Source: Candidatus Aadella gelida (GTDB lineage Bacteria > Omnitrophota > Gorgyraeia > Tantalellales > Tantalellaceae). From it: 64,000 bases of DNA. Shown here piece by piece: positions 3,485-40,302 of the stretch. The notes under the pieces are model-generated. The model saw nothing but the letters and a program-made list of their open reading frames with translations, did not search any database and was not told the DNA's origin. The translations under genes were made by a program, and so were the position numbers. How positions within the stretch are numbered: position 1 is the first letter of the stretch; every line of letters starts with the position of its first letter. Location of the stretch: contig JAVCDB010000106.1 of assembly GCA_030765205.1 (NCBI GenBank), positions 906-64,905 of the forward strand. The letters are read 5' to 3'.

Positions 3485-3531
3485 TTTTTATTTTCTCGCT
3501 CCGCTTGCTAGCCTTAATGCTAGGTCTGTTC

Positions 3532-4395
3532 TTAAATAAACCCTTCTATTATGGGTTTTAGTTTATCTAATGTCTCTTGAGGCACCTGATCTTTAGGTGT
3601 GATTATTGTGTTCTCTAAAGCCTTCGAACATCCACAGGCAGAACATTCTGACATATTACTGATAGTATTGATCAACATCTTCTTGGCTGTCTCAACGTTC
3701 TTGTTCAATGTTTCTATGATCATCTCTATGGTTACGCTTTCCGATCCGTCTTCTGTCCTCCAGCAATCATAATCTGTTACCATCGCCATCGTAGAGTAAC
3801 ATATACCTGCTTCTCTTGCTAAACGTGCCTCGGGCATATTTGTCATGCCAATAATATCCATACCCCACTTTCGATAAAGTTCTGATTCCGCTCTTGTAGA
3901 AAATGCCGGACCCTCCATATTCAAATATGTCCCTCCGTCATGTATTTTCACTTCAAGGTCTTTATTGCTCCTCATAATCAGATCTTTAAGAGAAAGACAA
4001 ACCGGATCCGCAAAAGGAACATGTGCCACTATTCCATCTCCAAAAAAAGTAGTCGCGCGAGCCTGGTTTGTTCTATCAACAAATTGATCCACAAGCAAAA
4101 CGTCCAACGGACGTATCTCTTCTTTTAGGCTTCCCACAGCCGAAACTGAGATCAATTTATCCACACCCAAAACTTTAAACGCGTAAATGTTTGCTCTAAA
4201 ATTTATTTCACTAGGCATAACCCGGTGTCCGCGTCCATGCCTTGGAAGAAATACAACTTCCTGATTTCCCATCTTTCCGACAACAAATTCATCGGATGGT
4301 TCCCCGAATGGTGTCTTGACTTTTTTTCGTTCGGTAACTTCAAGACCTTCAAGATTATAAAGCGCACTTCCACCGATAATTCCTATTTTATTCAT
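3532..4395 (-). CDS. mtnP: S-methyl-5'-thioadenosine phosphorylase (PNP family)
   Basis: N-terminal IGIIGGSA...EVVFLPRHGRGH and MTAP/PNP-family motifs. 287 aa, with a short Cys-containing C-terminal tail. Confidence 0.8.
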   Translation of the reverse strand: MNKIGIIGGSALYNLEGLEVTERKKVKTPFGEPSDEFVVGKMGNQEVVFLPRHGRGHRVMPSEINFRANIYAFKVLGVDKLISVSAVGSLKEEIRPLDVLLVDQFVDRTNQARATTFFGDGIVAHVPFADPVCLSLKDLIMRSNKDLEVKIHDGGTYLNMEGPAFSTRAESELYRKWGMDIIGMTNMPEARLAREAGICYSTMAMVTDYDCWRTEDGSESVTIEMIIETLNKNVETAKKMLINTISNMSECSACGCSKALENTIITPKDQVPQETLDKLKPIIEGFI

Positions 4396-4403
4396 ATGCT
4401 TGC

Positions 4404-4625
4404 CTATTTATTTATTGCTATTACCTTATTCCTTGATGTCGTTCCCTTGATAATAGTTACATCCCTTTTTTTAACACCATATTCTTTTGCCAAGAGATCT
4501 ATAACGGCCTTGTTGGCTTTGCCTTTATCCGGGGCGGCATTTATATAGACTTTCACGATCTCTTCCGACCGTACAACCTTCTCTGTTTTCGATTTAGGAA
4601 AAACCTTTATTTCGAGTTTCATCAT
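4404..4625 (-). CDS. DUF167 (YggU-family) protein
   Basis: 73-aa protein of YggU/DUF167 type. Its coding region overlaps yggT by 4 bp, matching the conserved yggT-yggU pairing. Confidence 0.6.
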   Translation of the reverse strand: MMKLEIKVFPKSKTEKVVRSEEIVKVYINAAPDKGKANKAVIDLLAKEYGVKKRDVTIIKGTTSRNKVIAINK

Positions 4626-4918
4626 CCAAGCCTATTGGCTATTTGGTACAAAATATTTACGACAAAACTTTTCACAACATTAAGAGCTATAAAGGCTACA
4701 ATAGGTGAAAAATCTATCCCTCCCGCCTGTAAAGGAAGTCTTCTGAACGGTGCCAGTATGGGGTCCGTTACTTTGTATATAATTCTCACTATCTCATTAT
4801 ACGTATCTGCCCCTACCCAAGAGAGGATTATCCTCGCAACTAGCAGAAAATATACTATATTTAAAACTAGAGAGATCAAAAGTGCCAAACTTCTGATTAT
4901 TTCTCCAAGAATGAACAT
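4622..4918 (-). CDS. yggT: YggT-family membrane protein (Ylmg-like, cell-division associated)
   Basis: 98 aa with two hydrophobic segments. Conserved position beside proC and the division cluster. Confidence 0.65.
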   Translation of the reverse strand: MFILGEIIRSLALLISLVLNIVYFLLVARIILSWVGADTYNEIVRIIYKVTDPILAPFRRLPLQAGGIDFSPIVAFIALNVVKSFVVNILYQIANRLG

Positions 4919-36364: not shown

Positions 36365-36856
36365 TTAATCGGCGCAACTGATTATTTCCGCATGAATATC
36401 GTCACCGTCTATTTCGATCATACCGAACGAACATCCCTTCGTACATACCCTGTCGGTTGCGCTTCCGGGATTAAAAAAAAGAACACCATCTATGACTTTG
36501 TTGACAGGCTCGTGTGAATGACCGAATATGATTATATCCGGCTTAGGCGAAAATTCCGTAGCAACATTATCTAACACTTTCAGAGGATGTCCCGATCCGT
36601 GTATAACCCCTATCTTTTTACCAGCTGCCTTAAATGTCAATTTTTTAGAGTAACGATTCTTTATCTCGGAACTATCCATGTTACCCTGAACGACCTTGGT
36701 CTCTGCCATAAGATTTAATTTCTCTATTACGGACTCCTCAACTATATCTCCGGCATGGACTATCAGATCACAATCCTTAAACCGATCGTAAACCTTAGCC
36801 GGCAGATCAAAAGTATTTATTGGTATATGTGTATCGGAGATTACGCCTATTTTCAT
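36365..36856 (-). CDS. YfcE/MJ0936-family metallophosphoesterase
   Basis: MKIGVISDTH...GDIV...GHSH motifs. Confidence 0.8.
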   Translation of the reverse strand: MKIGVISDTHIPINTFDLPAKVYDRFKDCDLIVHAGDIVEESVIEKLNLMAETKVVQGNMDSSEIKNRYSKKLTFKAAGKKIGVIHGSGHPLKVLDNVATEFSPKPDIIIFGHSHEPVNKVIDGVLFFNPGSATDRVCTKGCSFGMIEIDGDDIHAEIISCAD

Positions 36857-38490
36857 TTTACTATTTCAAATTTACCGAAAAGACGCAGGACCACATTGAG
36901 TTGCTTTTGGTCCCAAACCCAGACATTTTGTTCTTTTGCTAAAAGATATGCGTTCTGTTCTATTCCCTTAAGAGGAACAAATATCTTCCTCATGATCTTG
37001 ATATCCTTGTCGGGGAACTTCATGCTCCAAATATCGTGAATATCCTTATCATCAGAAATATCGTTCTGCTTTACATTACAAACCCAAGCTCTCTTGCCTT
37101 TTTTTCCTATGATCTGAAACACCGTATCAGACAATTTCTTTTTCTCAACACTGTCAAATTTAGGCATTTTTTTCATATTCATATTGATCTGCATTTTTTC
37201 GCCGCTAAAACTTTTGAACAGATCATAGATTATATCAGCTGCTTTTTTCTGACTAAAAACACAATATCTTCGGTAGTCATCTGATACTTCCTTCTTAAAC
37301 TCCAGATACTTGATCCCCATATCATCTATCACAGATCGACTCTTCAGATCATAAACATGTTTCAACCAATACTCAAAAAGTTTATCGGCAACGTAATAAA
37401 ATGTCCCGCTATTAAGGACAAGATCCATATCCTGCAATTTTTGAAGATTAAGCCCGGTATCCTTATCAGTTTTCCCGATATGGGCCTGAATGTCCTTAAT
37501 TGTCTGTTTCCCATGTGAGAGCGCCACAAGAATAGGGAGGAACTTCTTCCGGTTTTTTTTCTCAAGAAAAAAGTTAACGTTATTCATGAAATACTGATTA
37601 AGTACTCCGTTGGATTCATATAAAATGTAGGCTAAAGAATCTAAAAGATATTCCTCGTCGTTCTTCTCTCTCGTACTTTCTTTTCTTTTTATCTCCGACA
37701 CTTTCGAAGCCAGGTTCTCTAGATAGAAAGGATTGCCTTGAGTTATTTGGATAAGATAGCTCTTTATATCTTCGGCAATATCTACATCCTTGATTTTCTC
37801 GGACACAAAAGAACGAGCTGTCTGATTATCAAAACCGTCGATCTCAAGAACCTCAAAATTCCCAAAAAGAAGCGACAGTTTTTTAGTCAATATATCTTTT
37901 AGTAAGGATTTCTGAGAACTAGAAACTATATACATGGTATTTTTCTGTACCATGATAAATTTTCCAAAAACCTGAAAAGGTCTTCTAAGCTTGAAATTTG
38001 ACAGATTATGAAACTCGTCAAGAATGACCACACAATTCTTACCGGTCTCCTGTTTGAAAACAGAAGTTATTTCCAAAAGAGTCCCGTAAGCTTCCTCATT
38101 CTTCTTCCCGTCAAGACAGGTTGAGACCTTATCCATAGCACTAACGGTTTTGGGTATCATCCCTTTGGCTTTCATTCTGAGTGATTCAAAATCGTTTTCC
38201 GCCTTTTCCCCTTCAGACCGCAGGTAACGATACATCAAAGCTGCCATGAATTGAGTACAGAAAAAACGAAAATCCACCCCGTCCATTTCAATATACAACG
38301 GAATAACATCGGGGTCTTTGATACTTTTAAGAAAATGTCTTAATATGGAGGATTTACCGGCAAGCATAGGACCCGTAAGAGCGAGATTTTGTCTATACCC
38401 GCCTTTAAGGTCTGTAACTCTCTTCTGTAAAGTTCCGACCACTTCTTCCCGGCCGAACAACTTTTTACCGAAAACTGGTTCAATAAACAT
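36853..38490 (-). CDS. AAA+ ATPase of archaeal ATPase (Arch_ATPase) type with a C-terminal DUF234-like region
   Basis: Walker A GPMLAGKSS, Walker B VVILDEFH; 545 aa. Overlaps the esterase gene by 4 bp. Confidence 0.6.
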   Translation of the reverse strand: MFIEPVFGKKLFGREEVVGTLQKRVTDLKGGYRQNLALTGPMLAGKSSILRHFLKSIKDPDVIPLYIEMDGVDFRFFCTQFMAALMYRYLRSEGEKAENDFESLRMKAKGMIPKTVSAMDKVSTCLDGKKNEEAYGTLLEITSVFKQETGKNCVVILDEFHNLSNFKLRRPFQVFGKFIMVQKNTMYIVSSSQKSLLKDILTKKLSLLFGNFEVLEIDGFDNQTARSFVSEKIKDVDIAEDIKSYLIQITQGNPFYLENLASKVSEIKRKESTREKNDEEYLLDSLAYILYESNGVLNQYFMNNVNFFLEKKNRKKFLPILVALSHGKQTIKDIQAHIGKTDKDTGLNLQKLQDMDLVLNSGTFYYVADKLFEYWLKHVYDLKSRSVIDDMGIKYLEFKKEVSDDYRRYCVFSQKKAADIIYDLFKSFSGEKMQINMNMKKMPKFDSVEKKKLSDTVFQIIGKKGKRAWVCNVKQNDISDDKDIHDIWSMKFPDKDIKIMRKIFVPLKGIEQNAYLLAKEQNVWVWDQKQLNVVLRLFGKFEIVK

Positions 38491-38659
38491 AAGAAGGAAA
38501 TCTCAAATAATTATGAATAATAACGAATAAAATACCGCAATAAATAAACGGGTTAGTTATTAAAAACCAAGAACACATCTTATATTATCCCCCCACCCAA
38601 GTCAATATATATATTAAAATAAATGCCACACTTTCAAGCCCAATTTCCCTTGACAAAAT

Positions 38660-39300
38660 AATAGCCCCTTCGTCCGAATTTATTGTCACTACCATTATCG
38701 GAAACCGAGGCAAAGCCAAGGTTTCAAGAACGTCTGGGGCCACCTTTAAACACAAAAAAGGGGACAGTTGCCCTCACAAATTCGCAAACGGTACAAAATA
38801 GGGACATATGCTGAGTAATTGAACCTTTGTCAGAGTTTATTGTCGTTATTATTATCGGAAACCGAGGCAAAGCCAAGGTTTCAGGGTAGTTCCGTGTACA
38901 GCAAGGGGAAACCGAGGGCGAAGCCCAAGGTTTTAAGATAGTTCACGTGTACGGTGAGGGGATACCGTGTTACTCTTCCCTGCTACACTTACAGGTTCCC
39001 ACGAGCTCGCTCCGATGTTTGCGAGGAAAACTTTCTGGAAAGCTCGGTTTTCAGAAAGTTTGACGACCAAACATCAAAAAAAGGCAACTGTAAACAGTTG
39101 CCTTTTTGCCATAATTTTTCGAAGAAAAATTATGGAACGAGTGAGGGGAAACCGAAGCCACAGGCTGAGGTTCCCACGAACTCGCTGATAATGTTTGCGA
39201 GGAGAAATTTTAGAAAAGCTTGCTTTTCTAAAATTTTGACGACCAAACATTAAAAAACCCAAGTGCAAACCACTTGGGTTTTACCAACTTTTCCCTGAAA
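38660..39300. repeat. Array of degenerate direct repeats derived from the 3' half of the adjacent tRNA-Gly. It includes a 60-bp duplication (38668-38727 and 38824-38887) and two tandem ~150-bp paralogous units (38951-39110 and 39137-39282), each ending in a hairpin plus T-run
   Basis: Read directly: cgagtgaggggaaaccgaagccacaggctgag versus the tRNA's cgagtgaggggaatcgaacccccgtagccagc. Terminator hairpins at 39083-39108 and 39257-39282. Confidence 0.65.
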
Positions 39301-39303
39301 AGT

Positions 39304-39377
39304 TGGAGCGAGTGAGGGGAATCGAACCCCCGTAGCCAGCTTGGGAAGCTGATGTACTACCATTGTACTACACTCGC
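39304..39377 (-). tRNA. tRNA-Gly (anticodon CCC), CCA encoded
   Basis: Hand-folded: acceptor GCGAGTG/CACTCGC, D-stem GTAC/GTAC, anticodon stem TCAGC/GCTGG with loop TTCCCAA, T-arm GGGGG-TTCGATT-CCCCT, discriminator U, CCA. Confidence 0.8.
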
Positions 39378-39399: not shown

Positions 39400-40302
39400 T
39401 TATCTATAAAACTTAGTAAGCCTCTCAAAATGCCGATACCTTTTATCAAAATCTTCTCTTTTAACTTTAGCCAAGTTCTCCGCACTAAACTTCTCAACCG
39501 CGAACGAGGCCAATATAGTACCGTACACTAAAGATCTCCTCAATATCTTATCACTGATCTTTTTATGTCTCGAAAGGTATCCCATCATCCCGCCGGCAAA
39601 AGTATCTCCGGCACCCGTAGGATCCTTGATCTTCTCCAAAAGATATGCCGGCACGACAAACTGTAACTTCGGCGAAAAGAATAGCGCGCCATGCTCGCCC
39701 TTTTTTATAACTATCATTTTCGCGCCTTTATCGGCAATATATCTCGCAGCTTCGAACAGGTTCTTTTCTCCGGATAACTGACAAGCTTCAGCATCATTCA
39801 GCAGAAAAATATCGACTTTTTTAAGTAACTTTTCAAGCTCTTTCTTCTTGTGTGTGATCCACAAATTCATCGTATCACATGCTACGATCCCTTTAGGATT
39901 CATCTTCTTAAATATCCATCCCTGCAGCTCCGGATCGATATTCGCCAACAGTAAATTGCTTTTCCGATTGATTGTATCGGGAATATTAGGCAGGAACCCT
40001 TCAAAAACGTTTAGATGCGTGCTTAGGGTCTCCGCATGACTTATATCACGATACCGCGCTTTCCACCTAAAAGTCTCGCCTTCCTTTATCTCTAGCCCGG
40101 AGACACCTATTTTCCTTCTCTTCATCATGACTATATGTTTTTTAGGAAAATCAGTTCCTACCACACTGATAAGCTCGACAGGAGAAAAAAACGAAGCACT
40201 AACCGACGCATAGGTCGCCGATCCACCAAGTATATCTTCATTTTTCCCGAAAGGCGTCTCAATGTTATCCAATGCCACAGAACCGATAATGTTCAACCCC
40301 AT
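39400..40302 (-). CDS. PfkB-family carbohydrate/nucleoside kinase
   Basis: C-terminal DPTGAGDTFAGG motif. Start moved to the internal Met so that it no longer overlaps thiC. Confidence 0.75.
   Translation of the reverse strand: MGLNIIGSVALDNIETPFGKNEDILGGSATYASVSASFFSPVELISVVGTDFPKKHIVMMKRRKIGVSGLEIKEGETFRWKARYRDISHAETLSTHLNVFEGFLPNIPDTINRKSNLLLANIDPELQGWIFKKMNPKGIVACDTMNLWITHKKKELEKLLKKVDIFLLNDAEACQLSGEKNLFEAARYIADKGAKMIVIKKGEHGALFFSPKLQFVVPAYLLEKIKDPTGAGDTFAGGMMGYLSRHKKISDKILRRSLVYGTILASFAVEKFSAENLAKVKREDFDKRYRHFERLTKFYR

Follow-up and report, generated by a model that had tools for sequence, protein, structure and literature searches.

The Locus and Its Two Units

In a 64-kb stretch of DNA from a Candidatus Omnitrophota genome, two tandem non-coding units lie between a gene for an AAA-type ATPase (36853–38490, minus strand) and a gene for tRNA-Gly(CCC) (39304–39377, minus strand). 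They are the subject of this article. The whole stretch is called the window here; the Omnitrophota label is carried by all close homologues of the ATPase and of the PfkB kinase, whose gene (39400–40302, minus strand) flanks the locus on the tRNA side. The tRNA, which has an encoded CCA, is recognised by the Rfam tRNA model (67.7 bits) and by ARAGORN. It anchors the locus and served as sequence donor for one domain of the units, M2. The order of ThiC, PfkB, tRNA-Gly, ATPase and metallophosphatase is conserved throughout the phylum. The units lie in the spacer of 813 nt that separates the tRNA from the start of the ATPase gene at 38490; among Omnitrophota the length of this spacer ranges from 28 to 1462 nt.

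A preliminary description of this DNA had reported two tandem paralogous units at 38951–39110 and 39137–39282, and every element that it quoted was found at its position. The two units are indeed there, with limits that we now set at 38948–39107 (unit B) and 39133–39282 (unit A). On the plus strand each starts with a stem domain (M2), continues with a long hairpin (M1) and ends with a bidirectional intrinsic terminator. M2 makes up the first ~55–65 nt of each unit, is derived from tRNA-Gly and had gone unremarked. The earlier view of a duplicated pair of small RNA (sRNA) genes holds as far as the paralogy is concerned; simple duplication does not describe A and B, whose M2 domains are of two different types. 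Moreover, since a stem derived from tRNA-Gly makes up the 5' third of either unit, the pair reflects a tandem duplication of the tRNA 3' region and not only of an sRNA gene.

The repeat finder registers the relationship as a direct repeat of 67 nt (D2; 39015–39081 and 39191–39257), 84% identical and 176 nt apart, together with two long inverted repeats (I2, 39014–39041/39048–39075; I1, 39189–39219/39222–39252). Folded as plus strand, a 361-nt stretch of the array reaches −146.4 kcal/mol, compared with −85.8 ± 5.6 for shuffled versions (z = −10.8); the minus strand reaches −135.7 (z = −8.8). The motifs common to the units do not occur elsewhere within the 64-kb window. The array is, however, larger than two units and changeable, and extends leftward to about 38700. 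An open reading frame on the plus strand (38954–39253) crosses a terminator and the hairpins and was judged spurious.

The M1 Hairpin

The M1 hairpin of unit A (39190–39251, plus strand) comprises ~62 nt. It is built from an outer stem, AATGTTTG/CAAACATT, an internal loop and an inner stem of 14–15 bp that is capped by a G(CUUG)C tetraloop. The internal loop, CGAGGA/GACGAC, can be written as the succession C·C, G·A, A·G, G-C, G·A, A·G. Its paralogue in unit B (39014–39075, plus strand) has an identical outer stem and an identical loop, and its inner stem shows compensatory differences and one G·U on the plus strand. If the inner stems are aligned from the internal loop outward, five pair positions differ between A and B: three are double compensatory changes (A-U to C-G, U-A to C-G, A-U to U-A) and two are one-sided changes to G·U. 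That compensatory changes preserve the hairpin, as had been proposed, is borne out by this comparison and by the homologous copies.

These copies were found by tracking the flanking proteins into other assemblies. As MAFFT put the M1 copies out of register, an N-padded structural alignment with a script was used in its place. Six copies so aligned pair on the plus strand in 98.5% of the cells, and 19 of 24 pairs are altered on both sides. The covariation score is 0.878; shuffles give 0.289 (0 of 500 reach the observed value) and slid partners at most 0.183. With the copy of L251 added (relatives are cited here by their L numbers), at least two Watson-Crick types occur in 22 of 25 pairs. The preliminary description had made its proposal dependent on covariation in homologues beyond the two copies, and this was found: seven M1 copies from five genomes covary strongly. 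Judged by this comparison, the M1 hairpin is a structure under selection.

The internal loop is conserved in kind, not in sequence. Next to the inner stem, GA stands on both strands in seven of seven copies, which on the plus strand yields a tandem G·A/A·G. Beyond it follow one or two covarying Watson-Crick pairs (G-C in three copies, C-G in two, A-U in two) and then a second purine-purine step. The outer stems vary among the copies (ATGTTTG, GTATTTG, GGCATTT, AACATCT, GATGTTC). A loop of the type GA-G-GA opposite GA-C-GA recurs within M2 of L083 unit 1 and of L251, and a single GA/GA step is present in M2 of window unit A and of L083 unit 3. When 0.76 Mb of Omnitrophota DNA was scanned with a descriptor of the double-GA hairpin, the M1 copies were the only matches, all of them antisense to the tRNA. 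The invariance of the G·A steps suggests a platform that is structural or binds a protein. The loop, in which a covarying Watson-Crick pair sits between two tandem G·A steps, makes a compact candidate for a motif of this sort and is amenable to tests in vitro. CsrA-type GGA sites were considered and discarded: AGGA is found in the M1 loop of the window and of L086 and is absent in L130, L083 and L251.

The Strand

Over the seven M1 copies, 153 pairs are Watson-Crick on either strand, with 10 G·U and 2 mismatches on the plus strand and 1 G·U and 11 mismatches on the minus strand. The plus-strand fold is the more stable one in 12 of 14 modules. The loops are 64–86% purine on the plus strand and would be pyrimidine-pyrimidine mismatches on the other, and the G(CUUG)C tetraloop of window unit A exists on the plus strand only. 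In the closing stem of the B-type M2, a U·G on the plus strand in three genomes corresponds to C·A on the minus strand. The array is also G- and A-rich on the plus strand (GC skew of +0.079 versus −0.207 for the window). The plus strand, which the preliminary description had simply assumed, is thus favoured by G·U asymmetry, loop chemistry and folding energy, and we infer that the units are transcribed from it.

The M2 Domain and Its Origin

M2 of unit A (39133–39187, plus strand) is a stem derived from tRNA-Gly. Its 5' arm, TGGAACGAGTGAGGGGAA, with which the unit starts, was copied from the 3' end of tRNA-Gly and matches its reverse complement at 17/18 positions (repeat D7), the two being 171 nt apart. 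A closing stem is followed by GGGGAAACC-GA-AGCC-ACA-GGCT-GA-GGTTCCC, which contains a tandem G·A loop. Read on the minus strand, the same DNA becomes GCGAGT...ACTCGT-T-CCA, a 54-nt minihelix resembling an acceptor/T-arm, with the acceptor stem, the discriminator and the CCA of tRNA-Gly. Its end, ...CTCGTTCCA, is followed on that strand by a CCA...TGG hairpin and a terminator, which is the layout of the real tRNA.

M2 of unit B (38948–39013, plus strand) represents the other, B-type version of the tRNA-derived domain and has a sequence-conserved centre, GUGUUACUCUUCCCUGCUACAC. B-type M2 domains are 81–87% identical among the window, L086 and L130; the tRNA itself is 88–96% identical. The flanking proteins of the relatives with modules are, where measured, only 55–78% identical to those of the window, a distance at which neutral non-coding DNA should be unalignable. 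The conservation of the C/U-rich loop of the B-type M2 in sequence points to a pairing or binding surface. The tRNA-derived 3' arm of M2, in turn, follows the local tRNA variant, be it CCCCTCAC, CCCCTCGC or CTCCTCAC.

No M2 copy in the window, L083, L086, L130 or L030 is called a tRNA by ARAGORN or the Rfam tRNA model, the only call being the gene at 39304–39377; nor does any M2 copy have a T-loop. Several more specific ideas were dismissed. A pseudoknot between the loops of B-type M2 and M1 has a 6-bp match in L130 only and no covariation. Mimicry of an anticodon loop by M2-B (CUUCCC) is contradicted by CUUCCU in L130. For a compensatory change in the M2 helix of L251 that seemed to track a T-stem variant of the tRNA, the pairing register is ambiguous and no claim is made.

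Terminators, Trailer Hairpins and Promoter-Like Sites

Strong terminators closing each unit had been predicted, and both are there; in addition, they work in both directions. Terminator B (39076–39107, both strands) consists of A7, the stem-loop GGCAACTG-TAAA-CAGTTGCC (39084–39103) and T5, with a T7 tail on the minus strand. Terminator A (39252–39282, both strands) consists of A6, CCCAAGTG-CAAAC-CACTTGGG (39258–39278) and T4, with a T6 tail on the minus strand. Each has the G+C-rich stem-loop with an immediate T-run that defines an intrinsic terminator, the stems comprising 12–13 bp with 5 G-C pairs. The stem of terminator B, GGCAACTG, is that of the terminator of tRNA-Gly itself in L086 and L028.

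The tRNA of the window is followed by a trailer hairpin, CCAACTTTTC-CCT-GAAAAGTTGG (39284–39306, I13), whose 5' strand in the tRNA sense opens with the CCA of the tRNA and whose 3' strand closes with TGG. The same design, with different stem sequences, is seen in L086 (3969–3995), L028, L087, L128 (about 1250–1296), L130 (2582–2634) and L251 (about 3489–3515). The encoded CCA of tRNA-Gly(CCC) thereby forms the first 3 nt of the trailer hairpin, and it is the design that is conserved, not the sequence. A second trailer-type CCA...TGG hairpin, CCATAATTTTTC-GAA-GAAAAATTATGG (39109–39135, I10), separates the two units; it is nearly identical to the hairpin after the true tRNA-Gly in L086.

Within this second hairpin and in front of unit A lies a promoter-like site, TTGCCA-16-AATTAT (39106–39133, plus strand; 9/12). 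The best such site on the plus strand is TTGTCA-17-TATTAT (38827–38855; 10/12). In window unit A, L130 and L083 units 1 and 2, promoter-like sites of the plus strand end 4–7 nt before M2, those of L130 and L083 having been read by eye. On the minus strand, no sigma-70-like site was found before M1 in the window, L086 or L083.

Homologous Modules in Relatives

Homologous modules were found in five other Omnitrophota genomes (six with the window), always directly downstream of tRNA-Gly(CCC). L086 has the tRNA, the CCA hairpin, the identical GGCAACTG terminator stem, one M1 and two M2; L083/L084/L107 have at least three units; L130 has one unit, as has L251, whose contig ends within the repeat. 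Modules are also present in L030, and L028 has a degenerate copy. They are lacking at the other Omnitrophota loci examined. L083 further contains, at 4778–4900 on the minus strand of the locus, a degenerate inverted copy of tRNA-Gly with the anticodon-loop sequence CTTCCCA and the end ...CGCTCGCTCCA, which ARAGORN does not call. This copy and unit 3 run towards each other and meet at a palindromic terminator, the stem of which has 18 bp. Taken together, the modules of the relatives, the M2 arms that track the local tRNA and the inverted tRNA copy of L083 show an array that grows and shrinks by recombination involving the tRNA 3' end.

Searches outside these loci yielded little. Exact-pattern scans for the M1 outer stem plus loop gave no match in collections of genome and metagenome contigs, neither of which contains the source genome. 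The M2 pattern had 39 matches in metagenomes, of which only L107, from the population of L083, is real; the others are high-GC coding sequence. In viral contigs the M2 pattern did not occur, and a short M1 pattern had 117 chance matches, none with the hairpin architecture. The modules are best explained as a lineage-specific, unclassified non-coding set of a subclade of Candidatus Omnitrophota.

Many Omnitrophota assemblies terminate within the spacer between tRNA and ATPase. Short-read assemblies end there on the ATPase side in L001, L002, L003, L008, L013, L018, L026 and L030, and on the PfkB side in L085, L088, L128, L130 and L251. In L030 and L251 the break lies exactly inside a unit, which fits repeat-induced assembly breaks. 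It is of practical importance that short-read assemblies of these Omnitrophota genomes break at the tRNA-Gly/ATPase locus.

What the Units May Be

The reading that we favour, and to which we would give an even chance, is that the units are sibling sRNA genes which lie on the plus strand, converge with the tRNA and owe their multiplication to unequal crossing-over. The predicted transcripts would measure ~145 nt for A and ~160–250 nt for B. The arms of M2 go back to the strands of the acceptor and T-stem of tRNA-Gly. In L086 and L130, the simplest relatives, one sRNA gene and the tRNA would share a bidirectional terminator; in the window the sRNA block would have been duplicated, and copy number would alter when the 3' end of the tRNA and the tRNA-like M2 arm undergo unequal crossing-over. 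As to function, a trans-acting regulatory or a protein-binding sRNA is our guess.

Some findings weigh against this. The covariation and strand counts come from an alignment of seven copies from five genomes that was built by hand from plus-strand folds. Three of the ten plus-strand G·U pairs of M1 fall on one position, that at the base of the inner stem where it adjoins the loop, and without them the tally is 7 versus 1. In M2, single-sequence folds give 14 G·U pairs on the minus strand and 7 on the plus strand. A terminator scan places A and B on the minus strand, with T6–T7 there versus T4–T5 on the plus strand. Units 2 and 3 of L083 are without a plus-strand terminator, and the one after unit 3 works on the minus strand only. 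The promoter-like sites of the plus strand are weak, differ in sequence between genomes, lie within AT-rich palindromes and are weak or absent in L086 and L083. Finally, acceptor stem, discriminator T and CCA are retained on the minus strand in five of nine M2 copies (window A, L130, L083 unit 3, L251 and L030).

Several of these points are what one would expect if the functional RNAs were made from the strand of the tRNA, which we consider rather unlikely. M2 would then be a minihelix equivalent to the top half of the tRNA (acceptor/T-arm) ending in T-CCA, produced by read-through from tRNA-Gly and released by RNase P and 3' processing; M1 would be a leader or processing hairpin, and each copy would be closed by the kind of trailer hairpin and terminator that the real tRNA has. 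Unit A with its GCGAGT...ACTCGT-T-CCA, its CCA...TGG hairpin and its T7 terminator is arranged exactly as the tRNA in L086. The retained CCA, the longer T-runs, the lean of the M2 G·U pairs and the M2 3' arm that tracks the local tRNA variant agree with this view, and in L083 the inverted tRNA-Gly copy and unit 3 meet at one palindromic terminator, as convergent tRNA-like genes would. Yet on that strand nothing promoter-like stands between the strong terminator and M1, M1 would have to tolerate 11 mismatches and pyrimidine-pyrimidine loops, and the CCA is lost in four of nine M2, among them the best-conserved B-type copies of the window and L086. Also, no M2 has a T-loop or is called a tRNA. 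That there is no RNA function at all we regard as unlikely. The array would then have arisen from repeated duplications, both tandem and inverted, of the tRNA-Gly 3' region, its trailer and its terminators, and would now be in decay, with palindromes kept at the DNA level, e.g., by template-switch correction or by gene conversion with the tRNA. This would account for the spread in spacer length, for a copy number and order that vary between close relatives, for tRNA 3'-end fragments in both orientations, for the broken assemblies and for M2 arms that follow the local tRNA sequence. It would not account for B-type M2 domains that remain 81–87% identical at a divergence at which neutral DNA can no longer be aligned, nor for an M1 architecture that persists though almost every stem position has changed. 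Template-switch correction should erase a non-complementary loop of 5–6 nt, whereas the G·A/A·G arrangement is invariant in all seven copies, and a 10-to-1 asymmetry of G·U is unexpected for double-stranded DNA.

Very improbable, in our view, is a strand-specific DNA element, in which M1 would be a single-stranded DNA hairpin recognised by the transposase or recombinase of some small mobile element with the 3' end of tRNA-Gly as its target, the tRNA-like repeats being att duplications. The direct repeat of the tRNA 3' end at a distance of 171 nt and the character of the locus as an insertion hot spot (extra open reading frames in L086, L083, L028 and L033) are compatible with such an element; a stem of 7–9 bp, an unpaired spacer and a long stem recall integron attC sites, and DNA hairpins also tolerate G·T and G·A mismatches. 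However, the window contains no integrase or transposase between the conserved flanking genes, the variable outer stem leaves no fixed cleavage core such as GTTRRRY, and neither the rest of the window nor 0.76 Mb of related DNA has copies at other places, nor is there a match in viral contigs. It is likewise improbable that the modules form an RNA system dedicated to tRNA-Gly(CCC), which could be imagined on either strand. In the plus-strand version, the 5' 15–18 nt, perfectly complementary to the 3' strand of acceptor and T-stem and tracking its variants, would pair with precursors or fragments of tRNA-Gly and thus control the supply of a rare-codon tRNA. In the minus-strand version, CCA-ended top-half minihelices with the glycine identity pairs G1-C72, C2-G71 and G3-C70 and U73 would serve GlyRS, RNase P or the CCA-adding enzyme as decoys or as substrates.

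Sibling sRNA genes on the plus strand, should they be transcribed, would be the first structured small-RNA family described for Candidatus Omnitrophota, as far as our literature search found. To our knowledge, the phylum is without a cultured model, and hardly any of its RNA biology has been described. Such genes would in addition illustrate how duplicated parts of a tRNA gene and of its terminator can be put together into a non-coding RNA gene, which unequal crossing-over then multiplies.

Comparison with Known Systems

The Rfam scan suggested in the preliminary description was run, and no known RNA family accounts for the units. In the window, L130, L086, L083 and L030, tRNA alone passes the gathering score of Rfam 15. 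The only other model with an E value below 0.001 is the ylbH leader (RF00516), which matches the plus strand at 39073–39187, over the terminator, the AT hairpin and GAGGGGAAACCG. The match scores 33.2 bits, against a gathering score of 50. The equivalent in L086 (28.8 bits) covers the terminator and the antisense of the true tRNA, which argues for a generic terminator plus chance similarity. Besides, there is no downstream gene on the plus strand here that could be led. For bacterial Y RNA there was no Rfam match in the window; the Ro-binding helix and the rsr (TROVE) gene were not searched for. The literature on Omnitrophota non-coding RNA and on ylbH contained nothing relevant.

Among known systems, a few come close to the units. 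Tandem sibling sRNAs such as LhrC1-5 of Listeria and PrrF1/2 of Pseudomonas are, like our units, head-to-tail intergenic paralogues of ~100–200 nt with hairpins and an intrinsic terminator each. The C/U-rich loop CUCUUCCC exposed by B-type M2 is also reminiscent of the UCCC seed loops of LhrC-type RNAs. There is, however, no similarity in sequence or model, one third of the unit is tRNA-derived here, and the double G·A loop of M1 has no counterpart there. With tRNA-like domains of non-coding RNAs (YrlA, mascRNA, acceptor/T-arm minihelices), M2 shares, on the tRNA strand, the acceptor stem of tRNA-Gly, the discriminator T and the CCA in five of nine copies. But it is without T-loop, D-arm and anticodon arm, it is missed by the tRNA and mascRNA models, and the strand evidence of M1 points in the opposite direction.

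Duplications of tRNA 3' ends at integrase att sites resemble the locus in the direct repeat of the last ~18–24 nt of a tRNA downstream of it and in the variable content of the locus. They differ in that the repeats here are 171 nt apart without element genes, the DNA between them being a conserved, covarying hairpin and a terminator without open reading frame, and in that M2 also has a complementary arm that forms a conserved helix. Integron attC sites were rejected, as the outer stems vary freely, have the opposite polarity (GTTTG...CAAAC) to RYYYAAC...GTTRRRY and are flanked by syntenic housekeeping genes.

The loops of M1 also bring to mind K-turns and related motifs with tandem sheared G·A pairs. 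Pairs of 5'-GA-3'/5'-GA-3' flank helices twice per M1 and also occur in M2 of window A, L083 and L251. The M1 loops, however, are symmetric (5x5 or 6x6) and lack the defining 3-nt bulge. A further K-turn candidate is GA opposite ACGA in the basal part of M2; its bulge measures 2 nt, and its key G is lost in L086b (ACAA). No named motif could be matched to the arrangement seen in M1 and in the M2 domains of L083 unit 1 and L251, where one or two Watson-Crick pairs stand between two tandem G·A steps. The units are, in summary of these comparisons, a new and unclassified candidate RNA family of a known general kind: in layout they resemble sibling sRNAs, and their putative origin is that of tRNA-derived or tRNA-like domains.

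The Left Part of the Array and the ATPase Side

To the left of unit B the array continues with small plus-strand hairpins of the design seen in M2. One, GGGGAAACC-GA-GGGC-GAA-GCCC-AA-GGTTTT, is located at 38905–38934 (D4). Another, GGAAACC-GA-GGC-AAA-GCC-AA-GGTTTC, at 38857–38885, belongs to copy 2 of a 68-nt repeat (D1) and is preceded by the 10/12 promoter-like site. An identical hairpin at 38700–38728 belongs to copy 1, in which the promoter-like part is degenerate. A perfect hairpin of a different kind, GGGGGAACC-TTA-GGTTCCCCC followed by ...TTCGCTCACTGTCACCCCCTCC, follows tRNA-Gly in other Omnitrophota, namely in L250 (about 3600–3680) and in the gap after tRNA-Gly of L035; its stem resembles the M2 helix GGGGAAACC/GGTTCCC. 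In L010 (about 3830–4000), the spacer between tRNA-Gly and ATPase is made of short tandem repeats of the CTGATAA/CTGGTAA type.

An element that we call M3, ...GGGGACAGTTGCCC-N18-TACAAA..., occupies 38754–38805; it is promoter-like on the plus strand and weakly terminator-like on the minus strand. On the plus strand of the window it reads GGGGACAG-TTGCCC-N18-TACAAA. Conserved counterparts lie in L083 (two copies, at about 4170–4240 and 4440–4510), in L087 at about 4040–4180 and in L082 at about 240–275. In L083, M3 is situated directly upstream of M2 in plus orientation, like a promoter; in L087 two copies stand in inverted orientation at a distance of ~70 nt and so resemble a miniature inverted-repeat element.

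On the far side of the spacer, the ATPase gene has its own promoter, TTGACT-17-TAAGAT (38577–38605, minus strand), with an AT-rich upstream tract and a 5' leader of ~90 nt, an arrangement shared by L082, L001, L002 and L003. The sequence of the leader, GTGTTCTT.GTTTTT...AACTAAC..GTTTTATTTATTGC, can be aligned between the window and L082. A motif, TGTCAAG(R)AAAA, is located ~45–70 nt upstream of the −35 element of this promoter, at 38647–38658 of the window (plus strand CCCTTGACAAAA; minus strand TTTTGTCAAGGG), and may be a regulator-binding site. It is conserved in L003, L004, L005, L008, L025, L026, L028, L031, L032, L036, L037, L043, L082 and L131.

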